A program made the position numbers and the translations under genes. A stretch of DNA of 64,000 nt from Candidatus Omnitrophota bacterium. GTDB taxonomy: Bacteria; Omnitrophota; Gorgyraeia; Gygaellales; Profunditerraquicolaceae. This document shows positions 3,524-31,391 of this stretch, piece by piece. The notes under the pieces are model-generated. The model did not search any database, was not told the DNA's origin, and saw only the letters and a list, made by a program, of their open reading frames with translations. The stretch's first letter is position 1; each line of letters begins with the position of its first letter. The stretch lies in the NCBI GenBank assembly GCA_022710715.1, contig JAKLGJ010000001.1, forward strand, positions 554,041 to 618,040, read 5' to 3'.

Positions 3524-3890
3524 CTCTCAAGGCAAGTAGCGTAAGCCGAGTTCTGTCTGGAGTGGTTATTCCTCTCGACCCCGGGGTTACCCGCCGGGGC
3601 TTTAGCAGCCTACCCGAAACTGATAACGGGACGAGCCATCCCATCGTTTCCTATTCGGCCTTGCTCCGCGTAGAGATTGCGACGTTTCACTTCGGCCGGG
3701 GACGTTCCCCAAGGTACCACCCCTGGTACAGGGGTGGTACCTTGGGGAACGTCCCCGACTTATTCGTCTCTGTAGCTCTGATCCTCGCAGAAAACTCTGC
3801 GGGCAGGATGTTATCCGCTACGCTGCTCTCTGGAGCTCGGACTTTCCTCCCCGTTCGCACGGGGCAACCACTGCTACTTACCTTTGAGAA
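3524..3890 (-). ncRNA. rnpB: RNase P RNA, bacterial type A
   Basis: Reverse complement contains GGAGGAAAGUCCGAGCUCC (P4 5' strand), GGAGCAAGGCCGAAUAGG, GGGUAGGCUGCU and ACAGAACUCGGCUUA (P4 3' strand). These match the E. coli M1 RNA conserved blocks in the same order. P1 is formed by GGUAAGUAGC / GCUACUUGCC. Ends are approximate to a few nt. Confidence 0.8.
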
Positions 3891-5340: not shown

Positions 5341-5371
5341 AATCAAAAAAGGGTGGCGCGGCAGTCGCCAC
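5341..5371 (-). terminator. putative intrinsic terminator of the 400-aa secreted-protein gene
   Basis: Minus-strand RNA has stem GUGGCG/CGCCAC (loop ACUGCCG) followed by CCCUUUUUUGAUUUUUU, about 75 nt after the stop at 5449. Confidence 0.45.
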
Positions 5372-5448
5372 GCCTATCATGCTGCGATTGCTTGAGTTAA
5401 CGAGTGGACACCCGCGTTCAGATAAAGAAGACTTCGAAAACGATTTTC

Positions 5449-6651
5449 CTAACTTTTATTGAATAATGGATTTTCGGTGATTAAAGGCTGTGAACGGATC
5501 TCGAGAAACTTCTCTGCCAGATCTGCATTGTGCGCTTTCTTTTCTTGTGCCGGATCATCCGGCAGTATGGTTTCTTCTCTCGTCAAAGGTTTACCGAATC
5601 CGGTCGATAGGTAACGGCCGTTGTCGGGGTTATCAGGGTTCAAGGGATCGTGTATATCTATGGTAACTCCTTTATCCCAGCAGCTGGAAGATTTGTACAT
5701 ATTGTATGTGGTTATGTTTCCATAAAGCAGCCGGGTATCTGCTGGTTTCGCAGTTTCGGCCCGATTATCTGCTTGAGACGGCTTGGGTGCTGAAATATCA
5801 GGATAAAAATTATAGGATTGAGCGCTGGCTTCTGTTTTCTGGTCGACGTCGGGCGAGTATGCGGTTGTGCTCTCTGATGCATGTGTCCTGATATACCAGT
5901 TCACTTCTTCCCGGGTGGGAGTATGGTGTATGCTTTCCCAGTATTTCTTTTGAGCGTCAAAAGACTCTTGTATACCATTGCTGGATTGGGCCTGCTGCTG
6001 ATCGGCGGCATATTCCACCAGAGCCTGGGGCTTGCCGTAAGCTCGCCGCTCTTTTCTCAACACCATGTGGGCCCAGTAGGCGTCTTCTGTCATCGTGCCA
6101 TCGGGATTCCTGGCATTTAACAATGCGATGGCTTCGTCCGTAAGTCCTCCGGCAGAAGTCCTGGGAAGCATTTGCCGGGCGCGCTCCATCTTAGCGACCA
6201 CTCCAGCGCTTGTAAGCGTCCCGTCCGGTTTACGGGAAGCTACCAATGCCAGTTGTCCTTGCGAATCCCTTCCGGGGACCTGATCCGGTATGTCGGGAAA
6301 TGGGGATGTTCTCTTGCTTTGCGCAGAAGGCGTTGTTTCGTGCGCGGACTTATCAGATGGCACGATTGGGCTTGTAACCGGATTTCCTTTGCGGTATTCA
6401 GCCAGGATGGCTTCGTCAGTTCTGATCGGGACATTGACCGGGTTGTCCTGATTATATTTGTCCAGCAGTTCATCGTCGGTGTAAACAACAGCTTTTGCGG
6501 GAGGCTCAAATGAACCCGCGCCGGCAGCCATGCACTCGGGATTTATCGGGAATTCGTTCGGGACATCGACTTGAGCCCATGCACTGGCTAAAGCGGCGTT
6601 AAACAACAGGATCAATGCCTGAGATAGAATTTTCATCCTTGCACTGCGCAT
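5449..6651 (-). CDS. secreted hypothetical protein with internal RKPDGTLTSAG / RNPDGTMTED repeats
   Basis: 400 aa. N-terminal signal peptide MKILSQALILLFNAALASAWA. RBS AAGGAGGAG upstream. No recognisable catalytic domain. Monocistronic, with its own promoter, long leader and terminator. Confidence 0.6.
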   Translation of the reverse strand: MRSARMKILSQALILLFNAALASAWAQVDVPNEFPINPECMAAGAGSFEPPAKAVVYTDDELLDKYNQDNPVNVPIRTDEAILAEYRKGNPVTSPIVPSDKSAHETTPSAQSKRTSPFPDIPDQVPGRDSQGQLALVASRKPDGTLTSAGVVAKMERARQMLPRTSAGGLTDEAIALLNARNPDGTMTEDAYWAHMVLRKERRAYGKPQALVEYAADQQQAQSSNGIQESFDAQKKYWESIHHTPTREEVNWYIRTHASESTTAYSPDVDQKTEASAQSYNFYPDISAPKPSQADNRAETAKPADTRLLYGNITTYNMYKSSSCWDKGVTIDIHDPLNPDNPDNGRYLSTGFGKPLTREETILPDDPAQEKKAHNADLAEKFLEIRSQPLITENPLFNKS

Positions 6652-6679: not shown

Positions 6680-6722
6680 AAAATAAAAAAACCGGATCGC
6701 CTTTTCTTTTTCGGCAACCCGG
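6680..6722 (-). terminator. terminator-like hairpin plus U-tract inside the 5' leader, 28 nt upstream of the 400-aa gene ATG (attenuator candidate)
   Basis: Minus-strand RNA CCGGGUUGCC-GAAAAAGAAAAG-GCGAUCCGG (8/10-bp stem) followed by UUUUUUUAUUUU. It lies downstream of the predicted promoter and directly before the RBS. Confidence 0.4.
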
Positions 6723-6863
6723 ATATAGTTCGGAATTCAAAACTATTTTACCGTGGCTTTCCTGGCCTCACCCCTTCGGTCCGTCTTTATCGATGCCTCT
6801 CCCCCCAAGGTTCGGCTTTATCGATAAGAATCGAGTATTACTGATTTAAATATGTGTGATTTA

Positions 6864-6892
6864 AGTTTACCCTGCGCGGCTGTTGTTTTCAA
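6864..6892 (-). promoter_or_regulatory. predicted sigma70 promoter for the 400-aa secreted-protein gene (TTGAAA-17-TAAACT)
   Basis: Minus strand reads TTGAAAacaacagccgcgcagggTAAACT, 55-80 nt after the stop of the upstream gene. This gives a ~215-nt leader. The leader also contains a 10-bp perfect palindrome TTATCGATAA (6819-6828) and a second CTTTATCGAT copy (6785-6795). Confidence 0.3.
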
Positions 6893-6945: not shown

Positions 6946-7287
6946 CTATTGGAAGGAAGGAAGCTCTACTTTGATCTTACCTTGTTCTTCGGGGTTGGAA
7001 ACGACATAGCTGATACTGGAATTCAAATAGGATGACCATTTGTCATTTCGCCCCCTGCGCAGCGGGCCTAACGCGGATTTATCCTGATCGAGACGTTCAT
7101 TCGTTTTGTTGAAAACCATCGAGCGGTAATACACCTGTCCGATAGTCAGGCTGTGCAGGAACGCATTATTCCGGGCGGCAGCCTTAATGTCGTATTCCAG
7201 CAAAGCCGAGACGTTGGTGATAGACATGAAGAATGCCGTGAGCAGCGAAATAATGATGATGAGAGCACTGACTACCAGTCCGAACAT
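6946..7287 (-). CDS. small membrane-anchored protein, last gene of the pseudopilin cluster
   Basis: 113 aa with an N-terminal hydrophobic helix (FGLVVSALIIIISLLTAFF) but no G-F-T-L-I-E prepilin motif. 3-nt gap to the upstream prepilin-like gene. Confidence 0.5.
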   Translation of the reverse strand: MFGLVVSALIIIISLLTAFFMSITNVSALLEYDIKAAARNNAFLHSLTIGQVYYRSMVFNKTNERLDQDKSALGPLRRGRNDKWSSYLNSSISYVVSNPEEQGKIKVELPSFQ

Positions 7288-7290
7288 GGA

Positions 7291-7956
7291 TTACCGCCTT
7301 TTAACGACGTCGATGAACCAGAACCTGACTCCCTGGATCTTTTCCACCGTGGAAGAAACCCCGAACAGATTCTTGCGTTTGCTGTGAGTGGTTACATGCA
7401 CTTTAAAGAAATTCGGGCTCATCGGTTCCTCGGAACTGCCATCGACGGCAGGGGTGAACCGGAAAACGACATCCGCCTGGTATTTTCCTTCGATCAGGAC
7501 TCGTTCGGTGCCGGTATCGACGTTCCGGATCATCAGTGCGCCGCGCAGACCGTCCGGGCATCTCTGGCCTGACGGGCATTTGATGTAATATTCATACCAG
7601 ATATCGTCGCTATTCTCCTCGGGGGTTATGTTGAAGATGTTGCCCTGTCCGCGGAATTTGAAGTTATGCAGCTCTTCCGGTTCGTAACCCGAGAAACTGG
7701 TTTCGTTGTCGATCTCCACCGCGCTGGTGCAACGCAGACTGATGTCCTGCAAGGTGTTGCTGATCTGGGTATGCATGTTAAAACGTTCCATATACAAGCT
7801 TACCTGATGCGCGGTGTGCATGGTCATCCAGTAGATCGCCATGGCGACGGACGGCAGCAGGATCAGCGCGATGAGCATTTCGATCAGACTGAAAGCTTTA
7901 GCCGCTTTTTTACTGCGCGGCCCCGGTTGTGAAAGTCGTTTCTTCTCGTCGATCAT
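7291..7956 (-). CDS. prepilin-type N-terminal cleavage/methylation domain protein (minor pilin / pseudopilin-like)
   Basis: 221 aa. A 21-aa basic leader is followed by AFSLIEMLIALILL, a type IV pilin class III signal with Ala rather than Gly at -1 and Glu at +5. Confidence 0.65.
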   Translation of the reverse strand: MIDEKKRLSQPGPRSKKAAKAFSLIEMLIALILLPSVAMAIYWMTMHTAHQVSLYMERFNMHTQISNTLQDISLRCTSAVEIDNETSFSGYEPEELHNFKFRGQGNIFNITPEENSDDIWYEYYIKCPSGQRCPDGLRGALMIRNVDTGTERVLIEGKYQADVVFRFTPAVDGSSEEPMSPNFFKVHVTTHSKRKNLFGVSSTVEKIQGVRFWFIDVVKRR

Positions 7957-7957
7957 G

Positions 7958-8851
7958 TCAGCGGCTTGCCTCGGTGGCGAAAACGGTCATATCGAGATCC
8001 CGCAGGTAAAAGGTGTTTTTTTCACCGTGCCTGAACCAGCGCAGCTCTATGGTATGCTTCTGTTCCGGCTTGACGTTGGGAATAGTGATCTTCTGGCAGT
8101 TGATGGGCTGCGATTGTATCGGGGCCCATCCGCCGTATTCGGTCAGCCCGTAAGGGACTTCGTCGAACAAAAGCAGCGTATGAATCGCATCCGTGGGAGG
8201 TATGCCCTCCAGCGCTTCCGGATAAACGGAAACGCAATAATACACCTGAATGTCTTTTTCCACCGCGTATTCGACTTCGATCTTGCTGCGGGGAACAACA
8301 TGTTGCCAGCCGGGATGCCGGGGGTACTGGTACTCCGTCATCGGATCATCCGAAGCGGGGTAGTTAGCGACCTTGCAGGCGGCCGAAGGCGGGTACGGAC
8401 AGTGATAACTCTGCCGGCTTAGATGCACTTCAGGATAGGGATACATGGCGGTCAGGCGTAACGCGCGCTGGCCGGGGCTCTGCCCTTCCATGGCAACCCG
8501 GTCGTACCAGGCAGTCACGGTGATATTCTTATAGGGGATCTTGCGAAAATCGGGAGTATTCTTTCCCTGCAGCATCCGGGTCTCTTCGGGTGACACGGAA
8601 ATATTCCAGAAAGTTTTCAACCCGTCGATCCAGGACTGTTCCCCTGTTTCATTGCGCACGTAATCATACCCTCGCGCCAGAGTGCGTTCCATCTGGGTCT
8701 GCGCAACGCTCATGGCCCGGGAATCCAGTTCTTTGTTCTTGAGCATCTGAAAGCCGCCGCTCAAAGATACCACGATGATCCCGGAGATGATCACGGTGAT
8801 CACCACGGTTACCAGGAGTTCCACGTAGGTAAGACCCGTTCTGGTTCGCAT
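7958..8851 (-). CDS. prepilin-type N-terminal cleavage/methylation domain protein (pseudopilin-like, PilW/GspK-sized)
   Basis: 297 aa. MRTRTG|LTYVELLVTVVITVII has Gly at -1, Glu at +5 and a hydrophobic helix. The gene ends 1 nt before the next start. Confidence 0.7.
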   Translation of the reverse strand: MRTRTGLTYVELLVTVVITVIISGIIVVSLSGGFQMLKNKELDSRAMSVAQTQMERTLARGYDYVRNETGEQSWIDGLKTFWNISVSPEETRMLQGKNTPDFRKIPYKNITVTAWYDRVAMEGQSPGQRALRLTAMYPYPEVHLSRQSYHCPYPPSAACKVANYPASDDPMTEYQYPRHPGWQHVVPRSKIEVEYAVEKDIQVYYCVSVYPEALEGIPPTDAIHTLLLFDEVPYGLTEYGGWAPIQSQPINCQKITIPNVKPEQKHTIELRWFRHGEKNTFYLRDLDMTVFATEASR

Positions 8852-8852
8852 A

Positions 8853-9683
8853 TTAGAGTTCTCGGTCCAGCGGCATAAGGGTAATGGTCATCTGCCGGCT
8901 GTTGGCCGGGCTGAAGACCGTCAGCGGCGAATCGTTTTTCCAGTAGATCTCGATAATCAGGCTTGCGGGAAGTTCGCCGTTGTAATCATCGGGCATGATC
9001 AATGCGCTGCCCGTCATTACCGGTTCGCAGGGCGGAGAAGGCGGCGGAGGCGGCGTAGATACATGGGTCCTTTCCTCTCCCGGCGGCATCGAAATCTTGG
9101 CTTCTCCCTTTGGGTTCTTCATATCGGAGTTGACGATACAGCGGGAAATCACCGAATATCCCTCGGGAAAAGCCTGGATCGACGTGCCGTACCAGGCCCC
9201 TTCGCAGAGTTTATTCTCGATCTCCATCGCCGCCGGAGAATTGCCGAATACCTCCATTGTCCAGGTTACGATGACCTTGGCTGTTTTGCGGTATTCTTTA
9301 GGGATAGCAAGCTTATATTTGAATTCTTCCACCGGCACGAAATCCGCTTCCGATTCTTGAGCGGCTTTGCCGGAAAATTTGCTCTTGAGATGGATCGGCG
9401 CAAGGCTCAACCCGTCCGTGGCCGTGCCGTTTTCGACTTTTCCTTCGTGTTTGGCAGCGAGGTATTCCTCGCATTCAGGCTGTGTTCCGGCCTCAAAACT
9501 TTTGAAATGAGGATAACGCGCTTCGTCAAGTTCGATCCGGGATTTACCGGTGATCTCCTTGACCTGCGGGGTAAGATTTGCGGTCATTTGAGCGGTATCC
9601 TTGGCCAGGGCCGTCCCGCTTACGAGCAACCACAACGATAAGAACACACCGACTCCCACTGCGCTTCTGTTCGATTGTTTCAT
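8853..9683 (-). CDS. secreted hypothetical protein (signal peptide; PPPPPSPP linker)
   Basis: 276 aa. Signal peptide MKQSNRSAVGVGVFLSLWLLVSGTALA. No recognisable domain. Tightly linked within the pseudopilin cluster. Confidence 0.55.
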   Translation of the reverse strand: MKQSNRSAVGVGVFLSLWLLVSGTALAKDTAQMTANLTPQVKEITGKSRIELDEARYPHFKSFEAGTQPECEEYLAAKHEGKVENGTATDGLSLAPIHLKSKFSGKAAQESEADFVPVEEFKYKLAIPKEYRKTAKVIVTWTMEVFGNSPAAMEIENKLCEGAWYGTSIQAFPEGYSVISRCIVNSDMKNPKGEAKISMPPGEERTHVSTPPPPPSPPCEPVMTGSALIMPDDYNGELPASLIIEIYWKNDSPLTVFSPANSRQMTITLMPLDREL

Positions 9684-9695
9684 TGTTTCCTCCTT

Positions 9696-11054
9696 TTATT
9701 CCTTGCCGGATGGAGTGACGTCATGCCGCTGGGCACGGTAAATTTTCAATTCGACGCCCTTCAACCATACCGATAATTCGGCTTTCTTCTGGTCATCGTC
9801 GAACATGGGAATGAAATAGCAGAGTTCGACAGTATATGTTTTGAACGGCTCAAGTCCGCCGTTTTCGGGTTTCTCGTCGAAATAAGCCGCAGCTTCGATA
9901 GAGCAGTTGCCCCGGAAGGAACGCTGATGATGCGAGCTGTAAGCCTTGGTCTGGCCGCTGGGATCGATGATCCTGACCATCGAGAAGAATTGCGGCGGGT
10001 CTATGGACGGATTATCTTCGGCATACGTGCTGACCGGGGTGATGGTTTCCACGTTGATCGACCAGATCACGCCGATAGCTTCGTTTTCGCGGGCGCTGAA
10101 CATGAATTTCATGCTTTTACCGGCCGGAAAACCGTCAATATCGTCGATGGGCAGATAGTCTTTATCCGTCAAGCCCAGGATCCACTGGGTGTAGGCTTCT
10201 TCCACAAGCTTGCACTCTTCCGGGCTGGGTGCTGTCCGGCACGGGCTGTTCGCGCTTACCAGTGTATCGCAGGCAGATTCTTTGCAGGGAGGATTGCTGC
10301 CGGTAAACAGCGGTTCCCGGCAGCAGTTATAATCGCGCACGCATTTTTCCCATCCTTTTACGTCGCTGGAGCAGCGCGCGGCGCAGGATTTGAAATCGAC
10401 GGTCGGCACGTATTTGTAGCAGAAGTTCGGAGAGTTGTTGCATTTCGCTCTGTCGGCCTGCTGGGAATCGTCGTAAAATTCGATACTTCTGGAACAACTG
10501 CGGATATCCGGGTTGTTCGGCGTGCAGAACCGCCTGGGGGCGTATCCTCTGCGGTCGCAATACCAGATCGTGGAATCGGAGGGATCGACTTTGCAATCGC
10601 CCTCCGGTTGAAAAGCCGGGCAGCCATCCTCGTAACAGTTGAACTGGCCGCCGCTGCAGGCGGGATTGCAATTATCGTTTACGTCGATAGGCGAACATTC
10701 GCTGGGACGGAAAGGTATCTGTTTGGGCGTGCAGTCAAAAGAGTAACATTTTTTGTGCGGCGTGCCGGCGCTGTCGTATTCCAGGCAGGTGTCTTCCGGA
10801 CACCGGAGGCGCAATTCGTTGCATTTCCTGCAGGCTTTCCTTTTCACGAGTATCTCGGAGCCGGCAAAATCCGAATCCTGCAGCTGTAAATGCAAACCGC
10901 GGGCTACAGCGGAATTGATCGCGAAATCCTTGGGAAGATAATTGATCACGCGTTTGCCGCTATCTTCCGCGGTTCCGGCTAACGGCAAAAAAAAGACCAT
11001 GGCCACAGCAAGGCACATGGTGAAAATAACCGGTTGAGTGCGCAATTGTCCCAT
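9696..11054 (-). CDS. cysteine-rich secreted protein (putative adhesin / filament-tip protein), novel
   Basis: 452 aa. Signal peptide, then a roughly 230-aa region with about 45 Cys in irregular CxC / CxxC / Cx(n)C spacing, then a Cys-poor ~150-aa C-terminal domain. I recognise no catalytic motif. Confidence 0.6.
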   Translation of the reverse strand: MGQLRTQPVIFTMCLAVAMVFFLPLAGTAEDSGKRVINYLPKDFAINSAVARGLHLQLQDSDFAGSEILVKRKACRKCNELRLRCPEDTCLEYDSAGTPHKKCYSFDCTPKQIPFRPSECSPIDVNDNCNPACSGGQFNCYEDGCPAFQPEGDCKVDPSDSTIWYCDRRGYAPRRFCTPNNPDIRSCSRSIEFYDDSQQADRAKCNNSPNFCYKYVPTVDFKSCAARCSSDVKGWEKCVRDYNCCREPLFTGSNPPCKESACDTLVSANSPCRTAPSPEECKLVEEAYTQWILGLTDKDYLPIDDIDGFPAGKSMKFMFSARENEAIGVIWSINVETITPVSTYAEDNPSIDPPQFFSMVRIIDPSGQTKAYSSHHQRSFRGNCSIEAAAYFDEKPENGGLEPFKTYTVELCYFIPMFDDDQKKAELSVWLKGVELKIYRAQRHDVTPSGKE

Positions 11055-11103
11055 ACTGAAAATATAGCATATTTTTCAGTAATTACAACAAAAAGTCGCG
11101 AAA

Positions 11104-11484
11104 TCAATACCCTTTAAGGGTTTCTTTGCGTACGTGATAGTTGATGGTATCGCAGAGATTTTTCCGGTCGCGTTCCTCTATTTCCTGAAATGCCACTCTG
11201 GTTTCATAGATAGAATCCGGAGTGACTTCCTGGCAGGCAAGCACCCTGCCTTTCACAAACACCGGTTGGGCGGTTATGGGAAGACGGATGTGCAAACCGA
11301 AAGCCGTGTCAGGTTCATACGGCCTGCTGGTGGTAAAACGGATCCCGCCCATTCCTATATCCCGGGTCTGGGAAACGTCGGTAATAACGAACTGGGTATT
11401 CTCAACCATTCCGTAGGAAACCAGAAAACGGGCATGGGCGCGGGGAAAGCTGCGTTTATCGGTGTGGGAAGTCTGTTGCTCCAT
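11104..11484 (-). CDS. PilZ-like c-di-GMP receptor domain protein
   Basis: 126 aa. Contains RSFPR (RxxxR) and, about 25 aa later, DIGMGGIRF (a D-x-S/G-x-G-G variant) in the spacing typical of PilZ domains. Confidence 0.55.
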   Translation of the reverse strand: MEQQTSHTDKRSFPRAHARFLVSYGMVENTQFVITDVSQTRDIGMGGIRFTTSRPYEPDTAFGLHIRLPITAQPVFVKGRVLACQEVTPDSIYETRVAFQEIEERDRKNLCDTINYHVRKETLKGY

Positions 11485-11507
11485 TCGGTCCCTCCTTCCG
11501 GGAAAGC

Positions 11508-11990
11508 CTAATTCTGCGAATAATACCTGTTGATGGTTTTGACTATTTCCTTGTTCGTGGCGATAAAAGGCATAACGTTCAGATCGGAAAAATACCGCAA
11601 TTCTTCGAATGCGCGGTGATTGAGAGGATTAGCCGCTGCCACCGTCAGATTCCGGCCGTATACATCGACCGGCATCAGGTGATATTTCCGGCAGAACCAT
11701 TCCGGCACCAGCGCCACAACGTCGGGATTCAGCTGATAATGCTCTAACGGCAGGTACGGAACGCTGTACTGCGCGGTAAACGCCTGGATAATATCTTCTT
11801 CACTGGCCAGTTCAAGGCTCAACAGGATCTCGCCGAAAAAGTTATGGCCGTTCTGCGACAGTTCACCGCTGATCGCCAGGACCTTCTCCAGCTGAACCTC
11901 GTTGAGGATCCCCCGTTCCAGCAGGATCTCGCCCATGCGTTTCGCGGTAAGACGTTTCTTGAGATGGATCGGATGATCGGGTTTAACCAT
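11508..11990 (-). CDS. stand-alone GspE/MshE N-terminal (MshEN-like) domain protein with c-di-GMP-binding motifs
   Basis: 160 aa after moving the start to MVKPDHP... (ATG at 11990, RBS GAGGAG). RMGEILLERGILNEVQLEKVLAISGELSQ fits the MshEN motif R(L/M)GxxLLxxGxLxxxQLxxAL..Q. A second degenerate copy is FFGEILLSLELASEEDIIQAFTAQ. There is no ATPase domain. Confidence 0.65.
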   Translation of the reverse strand: MVKPDHPIHLKKRLTAKRMGEILLERGILNEVQLEKVLAISGELSQNGHNFFGEILLSLELASEEDIIQAFTAQYSVPYLPLEHYQLNPDVVALVPEWFCRKYHLMPVDVYGRNLTVAAANPLNHRAFEELRYFSDLNVMPFIATNKEIVKTINRYYSQN

Positions 11991-12003
11991 GAGTCTCCTC
12001 TCA

Positions 12004-12056
12004 ACAAAAAAACCACGGTCTCTTAAAAACCGGTTACCCGGTTCAAGATTCCGTGG
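12004..12056 (-). terminator. terminator-like hairpin plus U7, 14 nt upstream of the MshEN-like gene ATG (UvrD terminator and/or leader attenuator)
   Basis: Minus-strand RNA CCACGG...CCGGGUAACCGG...CCGUGG followed by UUUUUUUGUUG. It lies between a predicted promoter and the RBS. Confidence 0.4.
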
Positions 12057-12071
12057 CTGTAGGTTGTAAGA

Positions 12072-12100
12072 ACTATAGCATACGAACGCGCACATTTCAA
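12072..12100 (-). promoter_or_regulatory. predicted sigma70 promoter of the pseudopilin/c-di-GMP receptor cluster (TTGAAA-17-TATAGT)
   Basis: Minus strand reads TTGAAAtgtgcgcgttcgtatgcTATAGT, immediately after the UvrD stop. Confidence 0.3.
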
Positions 12101-28550: not shown

Positions 28551-29051
28551 CTAAACTTTTAATTCGCCGTGTTTTTTGATGTAATTGACGACCCCGCCGT
28601 CCTTGAGGAATTCCTGCATTACCGGAGGCAGGGGTTTGATGGAAAGTTCGATCCCTTTGGTCCTGTTCTTGACCACCCCGTGGTCGAGGTCAAGTTCCAG
28701 TTCATCCCGGTCGTCGATTTTGGAAGTATCCGTTTCGATAAGGAGCAGCCCGATATTGAAAGCGTTGCGGAAGAATATCCTCGCGAACGACTGTGCCAGG
28801 ACCGCGATGATGCCGGCGCCTTTGATGACCAGCGGCGCCTGTTCGCGCGACGACCCCATGCCGAAATTCTTCCCAGCGACGAGAATTGACTCGCCCGGCG
28901 TGATTTTTTTGTGAAAGTCGGGATCGATATCCTCCATGATGTGCTTGGCCAGCTCATTGATATCGGTAATGGAGAATTTGTAGCGGCCGGAAATGATGAA
29001 ATCGGTATTGATATTGTCGCCGATCTTTATGCTGTTGCCCGTGAGTTTCAC
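28551..29051 (-). CDS. aconitase-superfamily small subunit (LeuD / homoaconitase small subunit, archaeal-type)
   Basis: 166 aa, MKLTGNSIKIGDNINTDFII...GKNFGMGSSREQAP. Confidence 0.8.
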   Translation of the reverse strand: MKLTGNSIKIGDNINTDFIISGRYKFSITDINELAKHIMEDIDPDFHKKITPGESILVAGKNFGMGSSREQAPLVIKGAGIIAVLAQSFARIFFRNAFNIGLLLIETDTSKIDDRDELELDLDHGVVKNRTKGIELSIKPLPPVMQEFLKDGGVVNYIKKHGELKV

Positions 29052-29077
29052 CGCGGCGGTTCCTTTCTCTAACGCTT

Positions 29078-30124
29078 TTACAACTGTTTGAATTCTTCCA
29101 CGTTCTTAGCCTTGGACATGGCCACTTCCAGCGTGATCAATCCCTTATTATATAATTCTTTGAGCGTCTTATCCATGGTCTTCATCCCGTACTGGCTGCC
29201 GGTTTGCATGATCGTGGGGATCTGCTCGATTTCCTGCTCGCGGACAAGGTTGCGGATGGCCGGCGTGGCGACCAGGGTTTCGGTGACCAGACAGCGGCCG
29301 GTTCCCGACTGATGCGGGACCAGGAGTTGCGATACGATGCCCTGCAAACAGTCTGCCAGCTGCAGGCGGACCTGCTGCTGTTGATGAGGCGGAAAAACGT
29401 CGATGATTCTCTCGATGGTCTGCGGCGCATCCGGAGTATGCAGCGTGGCCAGTACGAGATGGCCGGTTTCCGCTGCGGTCAGCGTGGTTGAAATGGTTTC
29501 CAGATCGCGCATTTCCCCTACGATAATGACGTTGGGATCCTGGCGCAGGCAGTGGCGCAGCGCTTCGGAGAATGAATGCGTATCCGCATAGACCTCGCGT
29601 TGCTTGACAATGGCTTTCTTGTTGGTATAAATGAATTCTATAGGGTCTTCGATAGTGATGATCAATCCTTCGCGCTCCTGGTTGATCAGGTTCACTACCG
29701 CGGCCATGGTAGTCGATTTACCCACGCCGGTAGGGCCGGTGATCAGCACCAGACCGTTCGGCCTGCGGGCCAGCTCCATGACTACCGGAGGCAGCCCCAG
29801 GGATTCGATGTCGGGAATTTCGAGCGGGATGCGCCGGAAAGCCCCTTCAACCGATCCTTTCTGCTGATGCAGATTGACGCGGAAGCGGTCCAGGCAGGGC
29901 AAGGCCAGGGAAAAGTCGAGCTCCAGGTCGCGTTCGAACATTTCTTTTTGCGTGTCGGTCAACACGCTGTAAATCATCTTCTTAAGCACATCGCGGGTCA
30001 ACTTGGCCAGGTCGGTGCGCAGCAGGCGGCCGTCGATACGCAACAACGGCGGTTCGTTCTCGGTGAGATGCAGGTCGGACGCTCTTTTCTTGACGCAGAG
30101 TATCAATAGCTCATTAATATCCAT
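29078..30124 (-). CDS. pilT: type IV pilus retraction ATPase PilT
   Basis: 348 aa. Walker A GPTGVGKST, Asp box, Walker B, His box. PilT-specific AIRNLVRE near the C-terminus. Confidence 0.85.
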   Translation of the reverse strand: MDINELLILCVKKRASDLHLTENEPPLLRIDGRLLRTDLAKLTRDVLKKMIYSVLTDTQKEMFERDLELDFSLALPCLDRFRVNLHQQKGSVEGAFRRIPLEIPDIESLGLPPVVMELARRPNGLVLITGPTGVGKSTTMAAVVNLINQEREGLIITIEDPIEFIYTNKKAIVKQREVYADTHSFSEALRHCLRQDPNVIIVGEMRDLETISTTLTAAETGHLVLATLHTPDAPQTIERIIDVFPPHQQQQVRLQLADCLQGIVSQLLVPHQSGTGRCLVTETLVATPAIRNLVREQEIEQIPTIMQTGSQYGMKTMDKTLKELYNKGLITLEVAMSKAKNVEEFKQL

Positions 30125-30134
30125 GCTGCCTCCC

Positions 30135-31391
30135 TTATCCTAGAAACTTTGTAGGGTCGGTGATCTTTCCGGTGATCGCTGATGCTGCCACTGTTGCCGG
30201 TGAAGCCAGATAGATGAACGCGCTGGGATTTCCCATCCTGCCTTTGAAATTCCGGTTTGCCGTGGAGATGACCACTTCCCCGTCCGAAGGAACGCCGTTA
30301 TGCGTTCCCACGCAGGGGCCGCAACCCGGGACCACAACCGCGGCGCCGCTCTTGACGAACGTATCGATATAGCCCAGGCGCAACGCTTCAAGATAGATTG
30401 CCCGGGAAGCCGCAGCGACGATACAGCGCACGTTGGCGGCTACTTTTCTGTTCTTGAGCACCGCAGCCGCGACCTTCAGATCGGCGAGCCGCCCGTTGGT
30501 GCAGGTGCCGATAAAAGCTTCGTTTATCGTTACTGCTTTAACGTCGTCCGCATCCGAGACCGTATCCACATTATGAGGGACAGCGACCTGGGGTTTTAGT
30601 TTAGAGACGTCGAACTCCAGGACGTCCTGGTACACTGCGTCTTTGTCGGCGCAGACCGTAACGATCTTCTTGTTCGACGGAATATGCTGTTTGAACCAGG
30701 CCAGGGTTTTAGCGTCCTGCGGCATGAATCCCGCCTTGGCGCCCATCTCCACCACCATATTGCACATGGTCATCCTGCCGTCAATGTCCATGGCGTCGAT
30801 TACCGGTCCGCAAAACTCTATTGCTTTATAGGTGGCGCCGTTAGCGCCCACTTTTCCGATGATGTGCAGAATGATATCCTTGGCGTAAATGCCTTTCGGC
30901 AGTTTACCTTTGACCACTATCTTGATCGTTTCGGGAACCTTGAACCAGTTCTTCCCGGTAGTCAGCGCCACTGCGAGGTCCGTCGAGCCCACGCCGGTCG
31001 AAAATACGCCCAGCGCGCCGTAGGTGCAGGTGTGCGAATCCGCCCCCAGAACCAGGTTGCCCGGGAGAATCGCTCCGGATTCAGGAATTACCTGATGGCA
31101 TACGCCGCAGCCGATGTCGAACAACCCGACGTTATATTCCTGGCTGAACTGGCGCATCTTTTTGTGCACGCGCGAGACGCCCTCGTTGGGCGAAGGCGCG
31201 CTGTGGTCGATGACCATGCAGAATGCAGCGTTGAGCTTTTTGGCGCCGAGCTCTTTGACCCGGTCTATGATTATGGACGAGGTGCCGTCCTGCCCGAAGG
31301 TAAAATCAACGGCGCAAATGGCGAATTCGCCGGCACTGACCGGTTTTCCGGCGTGAGCGCTCAAAATTTTTTCGGCAATTGTTTTTCCCAT
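30135..31391 (-). CDS. aconitase-superfamily large subunit (LeuC / homoaconitase large subunit, archaeal-type)
   Basis: 418 aa. MGKTIAEKILSAHAGK..., Fe-S Cys ligands (...CGPCVG...), short archaeal-type length. Confidence 0.85.
   Translation of the reverse strand: MGKTIAEKILSAHAGKPVSAGEFAICAVDFTFGQDGTSSIIIDRVKELGAKKLNAAFCMVIDHSAPSPNEGVSRVHKKMRQFSQEYNVGLFDIGCGVCHQVIPESGAILPGNLVLGADSHTCTYGALGVFSTGVGSTDLAVALTTGKNWFKVPETIKIVVKGKLPKGIYAKDIILHIIGKVGANGATYKAIEFCGPVIDAMDIDGRMTMCNMVVEMGAKAGFMPQDAKTLAWFKQHIPSNKKIVTVCADKDAVYQDVLEFDVSKLKPQVAVPHNVDTVSDADDVKAVTINEAFIGTCTNGRLADLKVAAAVLKNRKVAANVRCIVAAASRAIYLEALRLGYIDTFVKSGAAVVVPGCGPCVGTHNGVPSDGEVVISTANRNFKGRMGNPSAFIYLASPATVAASAITGKITDPTKFLG

Follow-up and report, generated by a model that had tools for sequence, protein, structure and literature searches.

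A candidate priming and tip cassette for type IVa pili in Omnitrophota, preceded in one lineage by genes for MshEN and PilZ domain proteins

We analysed a 64,000-nt stretch of the metagenome-assembled genome of an uncultured Candidatus Omnitrophota bacterium (assembly GCA_022710715.1, contig JAKLGJ010000001.1, positions 554,041 to 618,040), here called the window, for a gene cluster with candidate pilus and cyclic di-GMP (c-di-GMP) functions. Seven tightly packed co-directional open reading frames (ORFs), g1 to g7, occupy the minus strand from 12095 to 6946. They encode, in this order, an MshEN domain protein (g1), a PilZ protein (g2), a Cys-rich secreted protein (g3), a second secreted protein (g4), two prepilin-type proteins (g5, g6) and a small membrane protein (g7); the last five are referred to as the g3-g7 core. 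The intergenic gaps are 23, 49, 12, 1, 1 and 3 nt, in agreement with the tight operon proposed in an initial annotation of this DNA. As that annotation also held, no ATPase, secretin or major pilin is encoded within the cluster. Identical proteins are on record from anaerobic-system metagenomes.

The g3 gene (9696-11054, minus strand) encodes a secreted protein of 452 amino acids with a Cys-rich N-terminal and middle region and a predicted C-terminal TNF/C1q-like jelly roll (approximately residues 310-445). It has 29 cysteines (6.4%), not the approximately 45 counted earlier, and 26 of them lie within residues 75-281. Both g3 and g4 start with hydrophobic signal-peptide-like segments followed by AxA-type sites, as read by eye. 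Neither protein matches any Pfam or NCBIfam model at E<=1, and thus neither is PilY1/PilC. When 1.84 billion cluster representatives were searched exhaustively with HMMER, a g3 family of 26 distant representatives emerged, with 430-475 amino acids and 25-33% identity. The closest of them at 31% identity, P0004, is encoded by the same genome as a paralog. Only the same species was recovered when g3, g5 and g1 served as queries in word-indexed searches. The g3 family is rare and uncharacterised, and so far it is found almost exclusively in Omnitrophota-labelled genomes. The family alignment contains a signal peptide, a YLPRD-like motif and a conserved C-terminal block of approximately 150 residues. 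There are 28 columns with at least 60% Cys, and the g3 protein of the window retains 24 of them. A cytochrome or heme-binding role was considered and rejected, as no CxxCH motif occurs in any of the 20 full-length family members.

Structure prediction of the Cys-rich protein, one of the checks proposed in the initial annotation, was informative for the C-terminus. The AlphaFold2 model built on a 27-sequence alignment had a mean predicted local distance difference test score (pLDDT) of 81.4, compared to 38 in a single-sequence run. The C-terminal domain of this model superposes on the ten-strand TNF/C1q-like jelly roll and not on a beta-propeller. The structural matches include the Photorhabdus TNF-like lectin (9ib6, match score 10.5), the C-domain of Chlamydia Pgp3 (9.9), BclA (9.0), the F-ENA tip (8.7) and the fibre head of Bdellovibrio Bd2734 (7.9). 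Further matches are phage tail-needle knobs, receptor-binding proteins and viral collagen-like fibre heads. No structural match to the Cys-rich part was found in the PDB. The similarity to TNF/C1q-like fibre heads has its limits: sequence identity is only 5-14%, and there is no collagen-like or coiled-coil stalk, the head being preceded instead by the unmatched Cys-rich module.

The second secreted protein, g4 (8853-9683, minus strand, 276 amino acids), has no Pfam, NCBIfam or PDB match. Its homologs are 27-37% identical (E from 1e-22 to 1e-48). The C-termini of g3, g4 and g5 look alike, but a shared domain was rejected at the sequence level (BLASTP E>=0.22, hhalign probabilities below 5%).

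The prepilin-type proteins are g5 (7958-8851, minus strand, 297 amino acids, MRTRTG/LTYVE, with the slash at the predicted cleavage site) and g6 (7291-7956, minus strand, 221 amino acids, KAAKA/FSLIE). A six-frame search of the window revealed no prepilin-type motif other than these two. The g5 protein resembles PilV/GspI at its N-terminus and carries a large extension at its C-terminus; g6 takes the ComGF/GspJ-like position. The profile of the g5 family matches type IV pilins exclusively in the PDB, and residue 1 of the mature pilins is aligned with the F/L following the predicted cleavage site. Weak matches below curated cutoffs were observed in the g5 family to PilV (TIGR02523, six of nine members, best E 5.5e-6), to XpsI/GspI (two of nine) and to GspH. 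The g6 protein matches TIGR02532 above the cutoff (20.9 bits against 16.3). Weak ComGF and GspJ matches, again below curated cutoffs, are seen in g6 and its relatives (E from 6e-3 to 3.5e-2). The F/L-T/S-L-I-E pattern is present in both families. All members of the g5 family have Glu+5, and so do eight of nine g6-family members, with Asp in the ninth. Thus the two prepilin-signal proteins of the initial annotation are indeed pilin-like, g6 by motif and model and g5 by motif and in-register profile.

The last gene of the core, g7 (6946-7287, minus strand), encodes 113 amino acids with an N-terminal hydrophobic helix from Met1 and occupies the PilX/GspK position. It matches no Pfam or NCBIfam family, and its assignment to PilX, GspK or ComGG was tried and found no Pfam or PDB support; from its position it could be a pilin-like cap. 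The pilin-like Verru_Chthon cassette of bacteria of the Planctomycetes-Verrucomicrobia-Chlamydiae group (TIGR02596-02600) was also considered. None of the g3-g7 proteins matches its models at E<=1, and its protein D is touched only by small upstream or neighbouring pilins, through the N-terminal helix. The Verru_Chthon cassette, PilY1/PilC and ordinary known adhesin families were therefore rejected for lack of matches.

Related loci were retrieved with a four-sequence subset of the family alignment. They comprise seven GTDB genomes (L006-L012), five of them labelled Omnitrophota, and four metagenome contigs (L013-L016). Homologs of g3, g4, g5 and g6 are found in the same order and on the same strand in 7/7 genome loci (tblastn E from 1e-15 to 1e-48), and g6 is conserved in all related loci. 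With tblastn, g7 was found in L007, L009, L010 and L012, four of the seven, as well as in L014 and in a paralogous copy of the cassette; the remaining genome loci contain at the same position an ORF that aligns with the g7 homologs. The metagenome contigs contain parts of the cassette as far as their extents permit. The neighbourhood is thus conserved for g3-g7; however, the MshEN and PilZ genes are not a part of it.

Instead, a pilin ORF of 122-138 amino acids lies directly before the g3 start or overlaps it in L006-L010 and in a further locus, L022. It is seen in all loci that include the upstream region. Four of these ORFs were scanned: those of L006-L008 match N_methyl/ComP_DUS, and that of L022 matches TIGR02532 (32.2 bits) and the N-terminal models of PilA/GspG. 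The overlap of g3 with the upstream pilin gene in relatives suggests translational coupling. No homolog of this small pilin was found elsewhere in the window.

The relatives also link the cassette to pilus assembly genes. The cassette unit of L007-L010 lies between lplA, which follows the glycine-cleavage genes, and lipA. After lipA, L007 encodes PilM (TIGR01175, E 1.3e-11; Pfam PilM_2, 27.6 bits), PilO (a weak match) and a PilQ-type secretin (TIGR02515, E 4.5e-43) that also scores against GspD (1.4e-38). Unscanned ORFs of L008-L010 match these genes in position. L012 and L020 share with L007-L010 this location of the pilin cassette, with gcvT-H-PA-PB and lplA on one side and lipA on the other, and pilM/O/Q-type genes come directly after lipA. 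In several relatives, pilus genes are thus interleaved with those for lipoylation and glycine cleavage. The Omnitrophota locus L011 (9303-15184) has two tandem copies of g4 and three more pilin-like ORFs (285, 349 and 134 amino acids) directly after g7, which suggests a second minor-pilin set.

A paralogous cassette (L017:8001-12199) is present on the same 1.62-Mb contig, approximately 14.5 kb before the window start and about 25 kb from g3-g7. It consists of g3' (P0004) followed by g5', g6' and g7', while g4' is convergent on the opposite strand. A GspG/PilA-like pilin is encoded 5 kb away. The flanking genes encode proteins of 1006 and 1080 amino acids that belong to no known family. A bona fide c-di-GMP-I riboswitch (L017:12860-12943; RF01051, 63.1 bits, gathering score 35) with a promoter-like site and a terminator of its own adjoins this cassette. 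It lies approximately 660 nt upstream of g4' on the same strand, with an ORF of 88 amino acids in between. Co-transcription of the riboswitch with g4' is uncertain, because a weak short terminator-like hairpin (GAGCCA...TGGCTC, then T5) occurs between the 88-codon ORF and g4', just before the g4' ribosome-binding site. The 267-nt spacer between these two genes contains CACCAGCCACGGT twice (L017:12230-12440, minus strand).

The first two genes of the cluster encode proteins of c-di-GMP-receptor type, as the initial annotation proposed. The g1 protein (11508-11990, minus strand, 160 amino acids) is a stand-alone MshEN domain of the PilB N-terminal ND0/ND1 type (Pfam PF05157, 72.9 bits, cutoff 23.1, E 2.2e-20). 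The most likely start is ATG 11990 and not that of the 195-codon reading, because it has a GAGGAG ribosome-binding site in front, the longer ORF would run across a TTGAAA-17-TATAGT promoter-like site, and the same start was called in five independent assemblies. The best NCBIfam match is PilB (1.9e-17) rather than GspE. In a PDB sequence search the protein aligned over its full length with the N-domains of PilB, PilF and MshE (6f8l, 5tsg, 5htl, 7lko); the matches include the Geobacter PilB N-domain (7.6e-19), Thermus PilF and MshE 5HTL (1.2e-13). It also aligns with 7LKO/7LKM, the Xanthomonas PilB fragment co-crystallised with PilZ (PMC8389850). The MshEN consensus consists of two tandem 24-residue motifs, RLGxx(L/V/I)2xxG(L/V/I)2xxxxLxxxLxxQ (Wang et al., PMC5013675). 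Motif I of g1 satisfies 11/11 positions of the relaxed motif, and the NCBIfam c-di-GMP_motif model scores 37.3 bits, the cutoff being 38.

The g2 gene (11104-11484, minus strand) encodes a single-domain PilZ protein of 126 amino acids (Pfam PF07238, 34.4 bits, cutoff 22.5, E 2.8e-8). The RxxxR motif is present as RSFPR. No PDB sequence match was found for g2, and there is no FimX-like GGDEF-EAL protein among the ORFs scanned.

A sigma-70-like promoter candidate with an extended -10 TG (TTGAAA-17-TATAGT, 12072-12100, minus strand) was found upstream of g1, just after the UvrD stop codon (12119). It has 10/12 consensus matches and is a consensus match only. Between this site and the ribosome-binding site, the short g1 leader contains a hairpin followed by a U-run, CGGTTTTTAAGAGACCG TGGTTTTTTT (12016-12032, minus strand), which may be an attenuator. 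This hairpin has no Rfam match, and no c-di-GMP riboswitch was detected in the g1 leader by the Rfam search. A second promoter-like site with TG (TTGTAA-16-TATATT, 11061-11088, minus strand) ends 6 nt ahead of the g3 ATG, and g3 has no Shine-Dalgarno sequence, which suggests a leaderless g3 transcript. The gap between g2 and g3 contains only a weak 5-bp hairpin without a U-run. Given the proximity, co-transcription of g3 with g1 and g2 is likely, but not more than likely, because of this promoter-like site and the lack of a Shine-Dalgarno sequence.

The g3-g7 core is a lineage-specific cassette with novel non-pilin partners, present in every related locus examined. The best-supported explanation, to which we assign a probability of roughly 0.6, is that it is a priming and tip cassette of type IVa pili, in which tip proteins are mounted on a minor-pilin scaffold. 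We place the secreted proteins on such a scaffold because of the fixed synteny, the pilM, pilO and secretin genes beside the cassette in relatives, and the predicted fibre-head fold of g3. The same evidence favours the initial proposal of tip or adhesin subunits on minor pilins. A position at the tip, a function in adhesion, the binding of ligands and joint regulation by c-di-GMP go beyond the gene content, domain identities, cassette conservation, pil linkage in relatives and predicted g3 fold that are shown here, and we infer them.

The mechanism could be as follows. The minor pilins g5 (PilV/GspI-like) and g6 (ComGF/GspJ-like) would form, together with g7, a complex that primes assembly and caps the fibre. 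The g3 and g4 proteins would be exported by Sec, join the priming complex in the periplasm and be carried to the pilus tip. Their role would then be that of PilY1 in Pseudomonas and Myxococcus, without relatedness to PilY1. The disulfide-rich module and the TNF/C1q-like head of g3 would make up the surface- or host-binding part. In the lineage of the window the small pilin that usually opens the cassette is missing, and the cytoplasmic g1 and g2 lie in its place. By analogy with the Xanthomonas PilB-N/PilZ complex, these two probably act as a c-di-GMP-responsive pair, which would tune the pilus motor or the assembly platform when the cassette is expressed. They might bind each other and, at the motor, either compete with contacts of PilB, PilM or PilZ or bridge them.

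Several observations weigh against parts of this explanation. Binding of g3 and g4 to pilins and their arrival at the tip are predicted from gene content and sequence. The jelly-roll match covers only approximately 115-150 of the 452 residues of g3, and this fold is common and occurs also in viral capsids. In the g5 and g6 families, position -1 of the predicted cleavage site may be G, A, S or T. The g7 protein has no leader and no Glu+5 and thus no class III signal, and it has no match among the PilX, GspK and ComGG models or in the PDB. In the genome of the window the cassette is not adjacent to pilMNOPQ, and the prepilin-motif scan revealed no major pilin within the 64 kb. As for c-di-GMP, motif II of g1 satisfies only 9/11 positions, with Phe at position 1 (Arg in MshE) and Glu at position 10 (the turn Gly). 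The g2 protein has DIGMGG in place of DxSxxG, the Ser of (D/N)xSxxG being replaced by Gly. MshEN and PilZ genes are missing at every other cassette-bearing locus. Finally, the separate promoter-like site directly ahead of g3 means that g3-g7 may have a promoter of their own.

Binding of c-di-GMP by g1 and g2 is plausible, but it is assured for neither, because each carries one imperfect motif. The receptor pair is a lineage-specific add-on and not a defining part of the cassette, since it is absent from all other cassette loci. Of the c-di-GMP control proposed in the initial annotation, the MshEN and PilZ assignments are upheld. Whether the cassette may be called c-di-GMP-gated is a matter of what we infer, because the receptors are absent elsewhere, the motifs are imperfect and the g3 promoter may be separate; lineage-specific control is plausible and in line with the bona fide riboswitch beside the paralogous cassette and the weak riboswitch-like element ahead of g8.

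One alternative, possible though rather doubtful, is that the c-di-GMP genes are unrelated neighbours. The g1 and g2 genes would then form a small operon of their own, with a global role in regulating the pilus motor or some other process and brought here by local rearrangement, and the cassette would not be specifically gated. This agrees with the lack of MshEN and PilZ genes ahead of every other copy of the cassette, the paralogous one included, with the promoter-like sites before g1 and directly before the g3 ATG, with the missing Shine-Dalgarno sequence and with the imperfect ligand motif in each protein. However, the genes are on the same strand, separated by 49 nt with nothing stronger than the 5-bp hairpin lacking a U-run. 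Moreover, MshEN is a domain derived from the type IV pilus ATPase, and an independent c-di-GMP riboswitch lies beside the paralogous cassette of the same genome.

It is improbable that the cassette encodes a short pseudopilus, a piston of the type II secretion kind, with g3 and g4 as secreted cargo and not tip-resident adhesins. TcpF and CofJ, which are secreted by type IVb pili, provide a model for such cargo. The weak GspI/XpsI and GspH matches in the g5 family and the weak GspJ match of g6 point in this direction, as do the Sec signals of g3 and g4, which have no pilin features, and the good GspD score of the secretin of relatives (1.4e-38). On the other hand, the neighbouring machinery matches PilM/PilQ better than GspL/GspD, and the window has a gene for PilT, a retraction ATPase characteristic of type IVa pili. 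That g3 and g4 are inherited strictly 1:1 with the pilins suits structural partners as well as cargo.

It is very improbable that g5-g7 are plain membrane-anchored proteins and that the cassette, having nothing to do with type IV filaments, forms a complex of the envelope or periplasm, for example a surface layer rich in disulfides or a complex for contact with a host that N-terminal helices hold in the membrane. In favour of this, Gly is often missing just before the putative cleavage site, g7 bears no pilin signature, and sequence searches linked the globular parts of g4-g7 to no known pilin structure. Against it, Glu+5 is conserved, the g5 and g6 families share the F/L-T/S-L-I-E pattern, the profile matches solely type IV pilins and does so in register, and relatives have a canonical pilin upstream and pilM, pilO and secretin genes downstream. 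If the tip or adhesin role is wrong, the cluster would be a set of ordinary lineage-specific hypothetical genes beside two common signalling domains.

The closest known counterparts of a type IVa priming and tip cassette are the tip operon fimU-pilV-pilW-pilX-pilY1-pilE of Pseudomonas and the minor-pilin/PilY1 clusters of Myxococcus. Here, too, a compact operon combines prepilin-type proteins with large non-pilin secreted proteins, the cassette is linked to pil assembly genes in relatives, and g5 is weakly PilV-like. However, there is no homolog of the PilY1/PilC beta-propeller protein, g3 and g4 being new families; the non-pilin genes come before and not after the I/J/K-like pilins; and g7 has no PilX signature. 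Judged by its architecture, the cassette corresponds in Omnitrophota to an operon of minor pilins and tip proteins, but its non-pilin partners are not homologous. The initial claim of an undescribed filament family was thus too strong, since the arrangement follows the fimU-pilVWXY1 logic. The more ordinary possibility that the annotation had itself raised, PilY1/PilC tip proteins in a standard fimU-pilVWXY1E operon, is right as to this logic and wrong as to the proteins.

Tip-located minor pilins with extra C-terminal domains or secreted partners are known from the type IVb systems CofB/CofJ and TcpB/TcpF and from Thermus ComZ. The enlarged minor pilin g5 (297 amino acids), encoded with Sec-exported partners and with a proposed tip role, is similar in this respect. 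However, the sequences are not similar, and the machinery encoded nearby is here of type IVa. The resemblance to the GspH-I-J-K pseudopilus tip of type II secretion is limited to the weak GspI, GspH and GspJ matches, while the neighbours in relatives are closer to PilM/PilQ.

The g1-g2 pair resembles the PilB-PilZ-FimX regulatory complex of Xanthomonas citri (PMC8389850; reviewed in PMC11656802): g1 is similar to the PilZ-binding ND0/ND1 fragment of PilB, and a PilZ protein of approximately 120 amino acids is encoded alongside. The likeness is one of sequence, and the N-domain of g1 is free-standing, without an ATPase, the proteins being products of separate genes. MshE of the Vibrio MSHA pilus (PMC5013675) belongs to the same domain family, and its published relaxed motif fits motif I of g1; the differences are the two failing positions of motif II, an inter-motif spacer of 9 residues in g1 against 5 in MshE, and the lack of an ATPase domain. 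A limited full-text search of the type IV pilus literature found no description of a separate MshEN gene beside a PilZ gene.

The next gene on the minus strand, g8 (5449-6651), encodes a secreted protein of 400 amino acids. It is separated from g7 by a gap of 294 nt and is the last gene ahead of the first strong terminator (5353-5374). It has no Pfam or NCBIfam family match and no homolog in any related locus; thus it is not conserved with the cassette. Its intergenic leader contains, on the correct strand, a weak candidate c-di-GMP-I-like aptamer (6709-6825, minus strand) that scores below the Rfam gathering scores: 24.4 bits for RF03167 (gathering score 59, E 0.023 in a 7.4-kb search) and, for the 3' half alone, 21.1 bits for RF01051 (gathering score 35). 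A 37-nt insertion replaces the first hairpin, and the 5' segment is tandemly duplicated, so that AUCGAUAAAG occurs twice. Equivalents of three ligand-contacting nucleotides of the published Vc2 structure appear to be present. An intrinsic terminator (6685-6722, minus strand) has a 10-bp stem CCGGGUUGCC/GGCGAUCCGG, an 11-nt loop and U7. It was read from the sequence, as the terminator scan skipped loops longer than 8 nt, and it is seen in the minimum-free-energy fold. The stem shares its 5' arm with the aptamer candidate, whose 3' strand it forms; this overlap, as read, is the layout of an ON switch. We would put the chances that the element is functional somewhat below even. A promoter-like site, TTGAAA-17-TAAACT, is found nearby at 6864-6892. 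Among c-di-GMP-I (GEMM-I) riboswitches, which occur upstream of pilin and adhesin genes, the nearest equivalents are the RF01051 element beside the paralogous cassette and this look-alike with its coupled terminator, the latter differing by the low scores and the insertion.

The housekeeping neighbours of the cluster in the window are rpoD, dnaG, cstA and uvrD/pcrA upstream and tRNA genes, RNase H, ruvC and ruvA downstream. A Pfam scan that covered most ORFs from about 1-34 kb revealed a single T2SSE-family ATPase, encoded at 29078-30124, 17 kb from the cluster. It is a true PilT/PilU (TIGR01420, 461.8 bits, cutoff 319.1), as annotated. Its gene is wedged between both aconitase-family subunit genes (28551-31391). 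The surrounding gene row belongs to the tricarboxylic acid cycle (aconitase, isocitrate dehydrogenase, malate dehydrogenase, lipoamide dehydrogenase, lplA), an unusual place for a pilus retraction ATPase. A near-perfect palindromic hairpin of 57-58 nt, consisting of GGGACGTTCCCCAAGGTACCACCCCTG and its reverse complement, occurs at 3699-3755 of the window, inside the RNase P RNA gene call (3525-3884), and with 98% identity at L017:13028-13085, just upstream of the riboswitch promoter. It may be a repeat of the repetitive extragenic palindrome (REP) or miniature inverted-repeat transposable element (MITE) kind.

A more far-reaching scheme can be suggested tentatively. The PilY1-type tip adhesin of Omnitrophota might have been replaced by g3, with a module of approximately 14 disulfides and a TNF/C1q-like receptor-binding domain, together with g4, as a head on the enlarged PilV-like g5. 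In the lineage of the window, control by c-di-GMP would be layered, through a free-standing PilB N-domain decoy or adaptor, PilZ and riboswitches beside both copies, and the whole might serve as the host-recognition device of the phylum.

Omnitrophota are nanobacteria suspected of living attached to other cells or preying on them, and to our knowledge none has been isolated. Type IVa pili are regarded as symbiosis-related and are among the main traits cited for a proposed attached, predatory or parasitic lifestyle of this phylum (PMC10066038). The cassette provides concrete candidates for the tip or adhesin molecules of such attachment: the g3 family with its predicted receptor-binding head, its fixed partner g4 and three pilin-like proteins. 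The g3-g7 proteins could be expressed, localised and used to seek host ligands. For pilus biology, the cassette would represent a PilY1-independent solution for the tip complex. The g1 gene is a natural case of the N-terminal (MshEN) domain of PilB as a separate protein beside PilZ, and it could help to reveal the role of this domain at the motor.

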